Assembly: GCA_045576035.1 (NCBI GenBank)
Contig: JAZNFN010000102.1
Coordinates: forward strand, 1 to 29,786
Direction: 5' to 3'
Origin: Christensenellaceae bacterium
GTDB taxonomy: Bacteria > Bacillota > Clostridia > Christensenellales > Borkfalkiaceae
Length of the DNA: 29,786 bases
The notes under the pieces were generated by a model, which saw nothing but the letters and a program-made list of their open reading frames with translations, did no database searches and was not told the DNA's origin. A program made the position numbers and the translations under genes. Positions 18,658-18,957 of the stretch are shown here, one piece after another (the first letter of the stretch is position 1; each line of letters starts with the position of its first letter).

Positions 18658-18957
18658 TTAATTAATTTTTAATTGTGATAGGAGCTTTAACAACCTAATT
18701 TTTTCTTGCTCCAACTCCTCATCAGTCAAAAGTTCAACGTCCTTTTGCTTTTCATCAAGCAAAATTTTAAGTGCTGTCATATCGGGTGGTACGTTTTTTA
18801 TGGTAACTTTTTTCTTCAAAAGTTTTATTTCCCCCTCATCGCCACCAGAGTATTCTTCTATAACTTCGGTAGCGTCGTACCCAAGCGCCTTTTTTATGAG
18901 TGCACTTTCAAGGTCGGCCTTTGACACTTTTTTCTTTCTACTGCCTTTTTCTTTCAT
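18658..18957 (-). CDS. Terminase small-subunit-like protein (99 aa, apparently lacking the N-terminal HTH)
   Basis: ALIKKALGY...KKVTIKNVPPDMTALKILL matches the oligomerisation core of Firmicutes phage TerS-type proteins; overlaps the TerL end by 20 nt. Confidence 0.6.
   Translation of the reverse strand: MKEKGSRKKKVSKADLESALIKKALGYDATEVIEEYSGGDEGEIKLLKKKVTIKNVPPDMTALKILLDEKQKDVELLTDEELEQEKIRLLKLLSQLKIN

Follow-up and report, generated by a model that had tools for sequence, protein, structure and literature searches.

Protein s99, encoded between the large terminase gene (terL) and the portal gene of a phage-like cluster in a Christensenellaceae bacterium, was identified from its sequence as a homolog of phage small terminases (TerS). 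Alignments and structure models indicate that it is without the N-terminal helix-turn-helix (HTH) bundle of its relatives. The best-supported reading, with a probability of roughly 60%, is that s99 serves as the TerS of a podovirus-like head-packaging cluster of the gene transfer agent (GTA) type, which the host lineage has domesticated and passes on vertically, and that this HTH-less form would package DNA independently of sequence. The case for sequence-independent GTA packaging is built on analogy and genomic context, and by analogy a GTA reading of the cluster is plausible. The concept of a headless GTA-type TerS has already been published for RcGTA and FpGTA. The observation and structural interpretation made in the original prediction were confirmed and extended to a large order-wide family.

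The window, the whole stretch of 29,786 nucleotides that was analyzed, contains a head and short-tail cluster of eight genes spanning 12377 to 20407 (Table 1). It is flanked on one side by ispG, a PolC-type exonuclease gene (polC-exo) and the pyr operon and on the other by a lipoprotein gene, a DAK2-domain gene and phosphoglucomutase (PGM). The cluster has a GC content of 39.6% compared to 37.4% for the genome. No integrase, replication, lysis, receptor-binding, or tail-fiber genes were found in the cluster, and no integrase or replication genes within approximately 8-10 kb of it in the window, L022 (a locus with a 150-aa HTH-bearing homolog) and the close relative L177 (GCA_054274295.1). The L177 locus also has the phage-like cluster among host genes. 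No second TerL was found in the genome scan. The eight genes follow one another in the same order throughout the genus, and ispG adjoins the cluster in many, not all, of the genus genomes. The locus encodes phage-like structural proteins amid host genes, has no modules for integration, replication, or lysogeny, and is inherited vertically under purifying selection across the host lineage. With no integrase in the window or within 10 kb in L022 and L177, it does not fit a cf-PICI-like satellite or a prophage, for which an integrase, att sites, a replication module and variable insertion would be expected. The terL ORF as listed has a GTG start at 20407; the ATG at 20371 is the likelier start because orthologs align from residue 13 and the gene call in L177 is 477 aa.

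Table 1. Genes of the phage-like cluster, with coordinates in the window.
Feature	Coordinates	Strand	Basis
Large terminase, terL	18938..20407	-	Pfam Terminase_6N and PHROG 2
s99, 99-aa TerS-core protein without HTH (by alignment and model)	18658..18957	-	PHROG 309, homologs, alignment, model, dN/dS
Portal, P22/SU10-like	16787..18646	-	P22_portal, PHROG 156; TTG start, GGAG Shine-Dalgarno
Scaffold-like coiled-coil protein, 143 aa	16355..16786	-	Position and coiled-coil matches; conserved in every cluster examined
Major capsid protein, podovirus type	15157..16335	-	NF033394 capsid_maj_Podo, E=1.6e-81; phrog_14242
Head-tail adaptor-like protein, 184 aa	14521..15075	-	phrog_2377, E=2.5e-4; conserved synteny
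417-aa structural protein, nozzle or head-closure-like	13277..14530	-	Weak matches to phrog_511 and phrog_578
298-aa protein, last cluster gene, then ispG	12377..13273	-	DUF7934 in close relative

The s99 ORF runs from an ATG at 18957 to a TAA at 18658-18660. Its start lies 20 nt inside the 3' end of terL in a different frame (terL stop codon 18938-18940). Its TAA overlaps the AGGAG (GGAG) Shine-Dalgarno sequence of the portal gene, and the TTG start of the portal gene is 11 nt past the s99 stop. This tight packing of terL, s99 and portal suggests translational coupling within one operon. The s99 sequence is MKEKGSRKKKVSKADLESALIKKALGY...KNVPPDMTALK, as originally described, with the conserved core beginning at approximately residue 13-19 after a short Lys-rich stretch. 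More than 309 homologs of the s99 type were found in a large protein collection, with identities of 60-97% and almost all 97-108 aa in length. They came from Clostridia and Christensenellaceae MAGs, on contigs of up to 326 kb. Exactly one copy was present in 24/24 other genomes of the same genus.

Between the window and L177 s99 has 17 synonymous and 3 non-synonymous differences, giving a dN/dS of 0.037. The values for its neighbors were 0.031 (terL), 0.034 (portal) and 0.034 (capsid), and 0.039 for the housekeeping gene ispG. In the same comparison dN/dS ranged from 0.03 to 0.18 across the cluster, and dS was alike within the cluster and in the flanking housekeeping genes. s99 is a real gene under strong purifying selection, far beyond a chance ORF. 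The short form is not a product of local decay, as it is single copy across the genus and order, has a dN/dS like that of ispG and has its place in the eight-gene cluster. In a bovine metatranscriptome, contigs of 97-99.5% identity matched terL, the capsid/scaffold region, the genes of the 417-aa and 298-aa proteins and the flanking housekeeping genes. Within window positions 11000-21500 bovine and gut metatranscriptome contigs matched parts of these cluster genes at a depth similar to that over the ispG and polC-exo flank, and s99 was covered by no such contig though other cluster genes were. Presence in an RNA library is not proof of transcription, and DNA carry-over is possible in the bovine metatranscriptome.

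s99 matched PHROG 309 (terminase small subunit) with an E-value of 8.8e-8 over profile positions 189-248 of 319. No family match was obtained in a Pfam and NCBIfam search. Sister families represented by genomes G027 and G032 have terL, portal and capsid proteins 38-58% identical to those of the window. Their best s99 match lies directly upstream of terL, in ORFs of 150 aa (P0121) and 177 aa (P0122). These match PHROG 309 at 5e-32 and 3e-21, respectively, over positions 126-252, HTH included. s99 falls on the C-terminal ~90 residues of the long TerS proteins in both alignments (A1 and A3), and the two forms have the invariant residues A24, G26, E35, K50, K54, P57, P58, D59, and A62 in common. 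Searching with a profile of the short proteins recovers the long TerS beside orthologous terL genes, with E-values of 1e-17 to 1e-29.

Foldseek with s99 as query against viral models (BFVD) returned longer terminase small subunit proteins (E-values of 2e-4 to 3e-3). A structural search of the ESM Atlas returned clusters of 155-235 aa with a TM score of 0.53-0.58 over the s99 core, and these carry Sf6_terminase, Terminase_5, Phage_term_sma or HTH_23 domains. The Foldseek check proposed earlier thus gave matches to TerS among viral models and nothing significant in the PDB. Models of s99 and P0121 had no significant PDB match (phBC6A51 TerS, 2ao9, E-value 0.56), and a PDB sequence search with the s99 family profile gave nothing below an E-value of 0.6. 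By these searches there is no solved structure homologous to s99. The top PDB rows were HU/IHF-like only at a TM score of ~0.2, and no HU-like function is claimed.

It is very improbable that s99 is unrelated to TerS and that the resemblance is the chance likeness of a short, charged protein. The missing Pfam, NCBIfam and PDB matches would fit such a likeness. It is effectively refuted by the reach of the short-protein profile to long TerS exactly beside orthologous terL, by the invariant motif of the short and long forms and by the identical core topology predicted for s99 and P0121. The earlier description of the protein as TerS-like therefore withstood the profile, alignment and model evidence, namely the PHROG 309 match, the profile match to HTH-bearing TerS beside orthologous terL and the predicted-structure matches to phage TerS; that the protein might not be a TerS homolog at all had been named as grounds for abandoning it.

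The AlphaFold2 model of s99 (pLDDT 91) has no HTH. It consists of a disordered Lys-rich segment (1-12), a helix (13-25), a long beta-hairpin (27-38/44-56) and two further helices (60-69 and 79-98). In the P0121 model (pLDDT 84) a core as in s99 is preceded by five N-terminal helices that s99 does not have, two of which (26-33 and 37-46) form a classical HTH pair. The long TerS proteins (150-177 aa) carry an extra N-terminal block of ~50-55 residues ahead of the core, which is absent from s99 in alignments A1 and A3. No HTH family matched s99 at E<=1. Loss of the N-terminal HTH had been proposed from the sequence, with alignment to full-length homologs as the check; the alignments and the models of both forms agree with it, and s99 is by both without the HTH bundle of its relatives. 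The HTH was probably lost rather than gained in the s99 lineage, because the phage family profile (PHROG 309) spans both HTH and core. A scan of the 93%-complete genome of the window gave neither a second TerS nor one of the HTH type. The idea that the HTH half is encoded elsewhere in this genome was also rejected, as the scan gave only marginal generic HTH matches (E-value ~0.01), far from the cluster.

The genus of the window has a short Lys-rich N-tail on s99, MKEKGSRKKKVSK. The short form of most families begins right at the core without such a tail. Some family members, among them P0260, P0172, P0159, P0132, P0129, and P0130, have Lys/Ala-rich low-complexity N-tails of 30-100 residues where their relatives have the HTH. 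Such tails of s99-family members have a net charge of up to +25 and may be non-specific DNA-binding arms. The Lys-rich tail was rejected as a general replacement for the HTH, as it is confined to some lineages. Among 150 listed cluster representatives 122/154 matched stretches had tails of <=20 residues without net charge bias.

The distribution of s99 was examined in Christensenellales, with membership of the order taken from MAG titles. The s99 profile matched 144/301 genomes of the order, almost always once each. Carriage was uneven at family level, with some families nearly saturated and others with zero matches. A profile search of 1.84 billion cluster representatives gave 2448 proteins at E<=1e-3 and 547 at E<=1e-10. 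Proteins of <=125 aa accounted for 118 of the 154 matched stretches in the 150 listed representatives, with the match mostly starting in the first few residues, and P0183 was the only one of the HTH type. The short s99 family is very widespread, being carried by hundreds of gut and rumen Christensenellales species. Outside the order a 400-genome sample of the class gave sporadic weak matches (1e-6 to 1e-12), mostly in frames of ~144-196 aa, a length typical of prophage TerS. Strong s99-type matches in this sample were confined to the window's own order.

Gene order was mapped in 60 loci fetched across families. In families f1, f10, f12, f15, f16, f18, f20, f22, f23, f25, f28, f30, f32, f34, f36, f38, f40, and f42, some loci or more had the short form downstream of terL. 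The HTH-bearing form, upstream of terL, was found only in families f4, f9 and f35. The canonical place of TerS is upstream, by terL; s99 is adjacent to and overlapping terL in the window yet downstream of it. The downstream position, noted earlier for this one locus, is conserved in most of Christensenellales. HTH-type elements formed one clan in the TerL tree with support of 99/99, and the grouping of rows largely follows host family, in line with vertical descent. Rooting of the tree with phage outgroups was rejected as the branches were too long and distant to fix the direction of change. Families f4, f9 and f35 have a stand-alone cluster like that of the window and have kept the HTH-type TerS, so HTH loss is neither required for nor the cause of the stand-alone state. 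In G027 the HTH-type element likewise stands alone, no integrase being found within 10 kb of it. Two tRNA-Ser genes and ABC-transporter genes adjoin it at one end, and more structural genes at the other.

Two genera depart from the common arrangement. Genus g62 (family f34; L159 and L160) has a short headless form ~1.1 kb upstream of terL, which is followed directly by portal; HTH loss and the downstream move are thus not strictly coupled. Genus g36 (family f32; L150-L153; genomes of 0.8-1.2 Mb) keeps s99, portal, scaffold and capsid together, with an intact terL 49-58 kb away. This distant terL is on the same contig and 65-66% identical (G263:C11:152031-153476 and G164:C1:136074-137522). A small Cys4 zinc-ribbon-like ORF encoding 73 aa was present between the s99 homolog and portal in two other families (L020:9686-9907, minus strand, and L021:9553-9933, minus strand). 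No such ORF was found between s99 and portal in the window.

These arrangements bear on an unlikely alternative, that s99 is a TerS-derived accessory factor whose sole role is to regulate TerL or to dock it on the portal. Another protein would then choose the DNA, such as a separate HTH protein or the zinc-ribbon protein adjoining s99 in some lineages, and packaging need not be random. The persistence of s99 with portal in g36 while terL is far away would suit this role, as would the zinc-ribbon gene of L020 and L021 and a sigma-70 region-4-like regulator tied to the cluster in several genomes. The zinc-ribbon gene is, however, lineage-specific, no extra gene of this kind is present in the window's cluster and the marginal HTH matches in its own genome lie far from the cluster.

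Phage databases were searched for similar proteins. Among 50,697 phage records s99 gave weak partial matches only, to longer TerS, and the best TerL match was ~30% identical. Equally short homologs in the same gene order in bona fide phages would have counted against the original prediction; no short s99 homolog at the terL-portal position was found among the sequenced phages searched. Of the three observations named as refuting that prediction, the third being binding to a specific site in the module, none turned up in the searches made here. A conserved small terL-portal ORF of podoviruses was considered and rejected, as gp38 of the EBPR podovirus and the ORF of Pelagibacter phage Baldr have no similarity to the family profile. 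IMG/VR contigs with the s99 family are short fragments with the same order of terL, s99 and portal, with one long exception. This record of 67,686 bases (67.7 kb; behind L033 and L181-L184) is flagged as a provirus, 100% complete. It was rejected as a real phage carrier because it joins the mini-cluster to an adjacent, distinct siphovirus prophage that encodes a serine integrase, a primase, a tape measure and a TerL of its own (phrog_9). The record shows how such clusters become catalogued as viruses.

A second alternative is that the cluster is a mobile virus-like element, either a defective prophage remnant or a tail-borrowing capsid-forming satellite, in which s99 would be an ordinary phage TerS variant that still uses its core or basic tail to recognize a pac site. 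The viral labels in IMG/VR, including that of the 67.7-kb provirus, and on ESM Atlas clusters are in keeping with this, as are a weak fold match of s99 to a 99-aa Lactococcus phage protein and the small ORFs that distant podoviruses do have between terL and portal. We consider it improbable, since the 67.7-kb record places the mini-cluster next to a distinct prophage, the small podovirus ORFs are dissimilar to s99 and the closest TerL in the phage records is distant. The single copy, the genus-wide gene order, the frequent though not universal neighborhood of ispG, the integrase- and replication-free surroundings (approximately 8-10 kb in the window, L022 and L177), the strong purifying selection and a dS similar to that of flanking housekeeping genes also argue against a mobile element.

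The reading of s99 as the TerS of a domesticated GTA-like cluster was compared to published systems. In the Rhodobacter capsulatus GTA (RcGTA), the small terminase gp1 has no DNA-binding domain and its binding to DNA is weak and non-specific, a trait proposed to define the GTA type of TerS (Sherlock et al., 2019; PMC6854486). The alphaproteobacterial precedent cited in the original prediction was therefore correct. s99 likewise keeps the TerS core without the specific DNA-binding domain. Both are short TerS proteins that start from the oligomerization core without an N-terminal HTH and lie in a chromosomally inherited phage-like cluster, and for gp1 this shape was proposed to explain non-specific packaging. 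The gene for gp1 (g1) is upstream of terL in a siphovirus-like alphaproteobacterial cluster, whereas s99 is downstream in a podovirus-like Christensenellales cluster. Compared by description, the gp1 core is a predicted T4-like coiled coil and that of s99 a helix with a long beta-hairpin. gp1 has genetic and EMSA support, while s99 is known here from sequence and models. As discussed in PMC6854486, DNA binding by some TerS involves regions outside the HTH, so s99 could still be sequence-specific.

The GTA of Faecalibacterium prausnitzii (FpGTA) has a podovirus-like 10.5-kb operon with a TerS without an obvious DNA-binding domain, and particles of ~40 nm, their proteome and packaged DNA of 8.4-8.9 kb were demonstrated (Nat Commun 2026; PMC12946183). 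As with the window's cluster, its host is a gut anaerobe of the Bacillota, it is conserved across the genus, and tail-fiber and lysis genes are absent from the cluster, being elsewhere in the genome in the case of FpGTA. The FpGTA TerL (RCH50852) directly adjoins the portal (RCH50851) with no gene between, whereas s99 lies between the two in the window. The capsids are set apart by annotation, that of FpGTA as N4-gp56 family and that of the window as NF033394. FpGTA and the s99 cluster are probably independent lineages, given that strong s99-type matches in the 400-genome class sample were confined to one order.

A third comparison is with the phrog_309-type TerS of phages and prophages, including the HTH-bearing forms of f4, f9 and f35 (P0121 and P0122). 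Their core is homologous to s99, with the motif KxKVxxKxxPPDxxAxK and the same predicted topology of helix, hairpin, helix, helix. The forms of f4, f9 and f35 have 150-177 aa, an HTH bundle and a place upstream of terL, in contrast to the 99 aa, missing HTH and downstream place of s99.

These comparisons suggest the following mechanism. s99 would derive from a phrog_309-type TerS by loss of the ~55-residue N-terminal HTH bundle, with the gene now placed between terL and portal. The remaining helix, beta-hairpin, helix, helix core is presumed to be the oligomerizing, TerL-contacting part, since this core follows the HTH in its relatives. Translation of s99 would be coupled to that of terL, and a ring of s99 would activate TerL. 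Having no sequence-reading domain, s99 would bring TerL to DNA through weak non-specific contacts only. Candidate surfaces for these contacts are the conserved basic hairpin (K48, K50 and K54) and, in the genus of the window, also the Lys-rich N-tail. Headful packaging could then start anywhere on the chromosome, giving particles with randomly packaged host DNA.

GTA-like packaging of host DNA has been reported for Christensenellaceae HGM11616 (~4.1 kb) and QANA01 (~6.3 kb), with the locus not named (PMC12946183). The cluster is a candidate locus for GTA-like DNA mobilization in human-gut Christensenellaceae. We tentatively propose, at somewhat less than even odds, that it is the locus behind this 4-6 kb packaging of host DNA in gut Christensenellaceae, with matched pairs of HTH-bearing upstream and headless downstream TerS in one order. 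The proposal that loss of the TerS DNA-binding domain is the hallmark setting GTAs apart from phages rests on very few examples, to which the s99 family would add an independent and very widespread one. Sister families whose terL, portal and capsid genes are orthologous still have the presumably ancestral HTH-bearing form, providing a natural comparison of HTH-plus and HTH-minus clusters that bears on whether HTH loss causes random packaging. If the proposal is true, such natural pairs would let the role of the DNA-reading domain of TerS in the switch from self- to random-packaging be tested directly.

Further features of the cluster were observed. A gene for a sigma-70 region-4-like regulator (169-225 aa; PHROG transcriptional activator) and one for a membrane protein lie just upstream of the cluster in several genomes, the pair being upstream of terL in L016, L025, L020, L021, and L177. 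The window's own genome (G000) has the pair on another contig (C133:2873-3382, plus strand, and 3431-4159, minus strand). The regulator may be dedicated to the cluster. The 417-aa gene is the fastest-evolving of the cluster, with 78% identity and a dN/dS of 0.18 compared to L177 and ~20-29% identity within the genus, and this fast evolution would suit a surface or receptor-contacting part.
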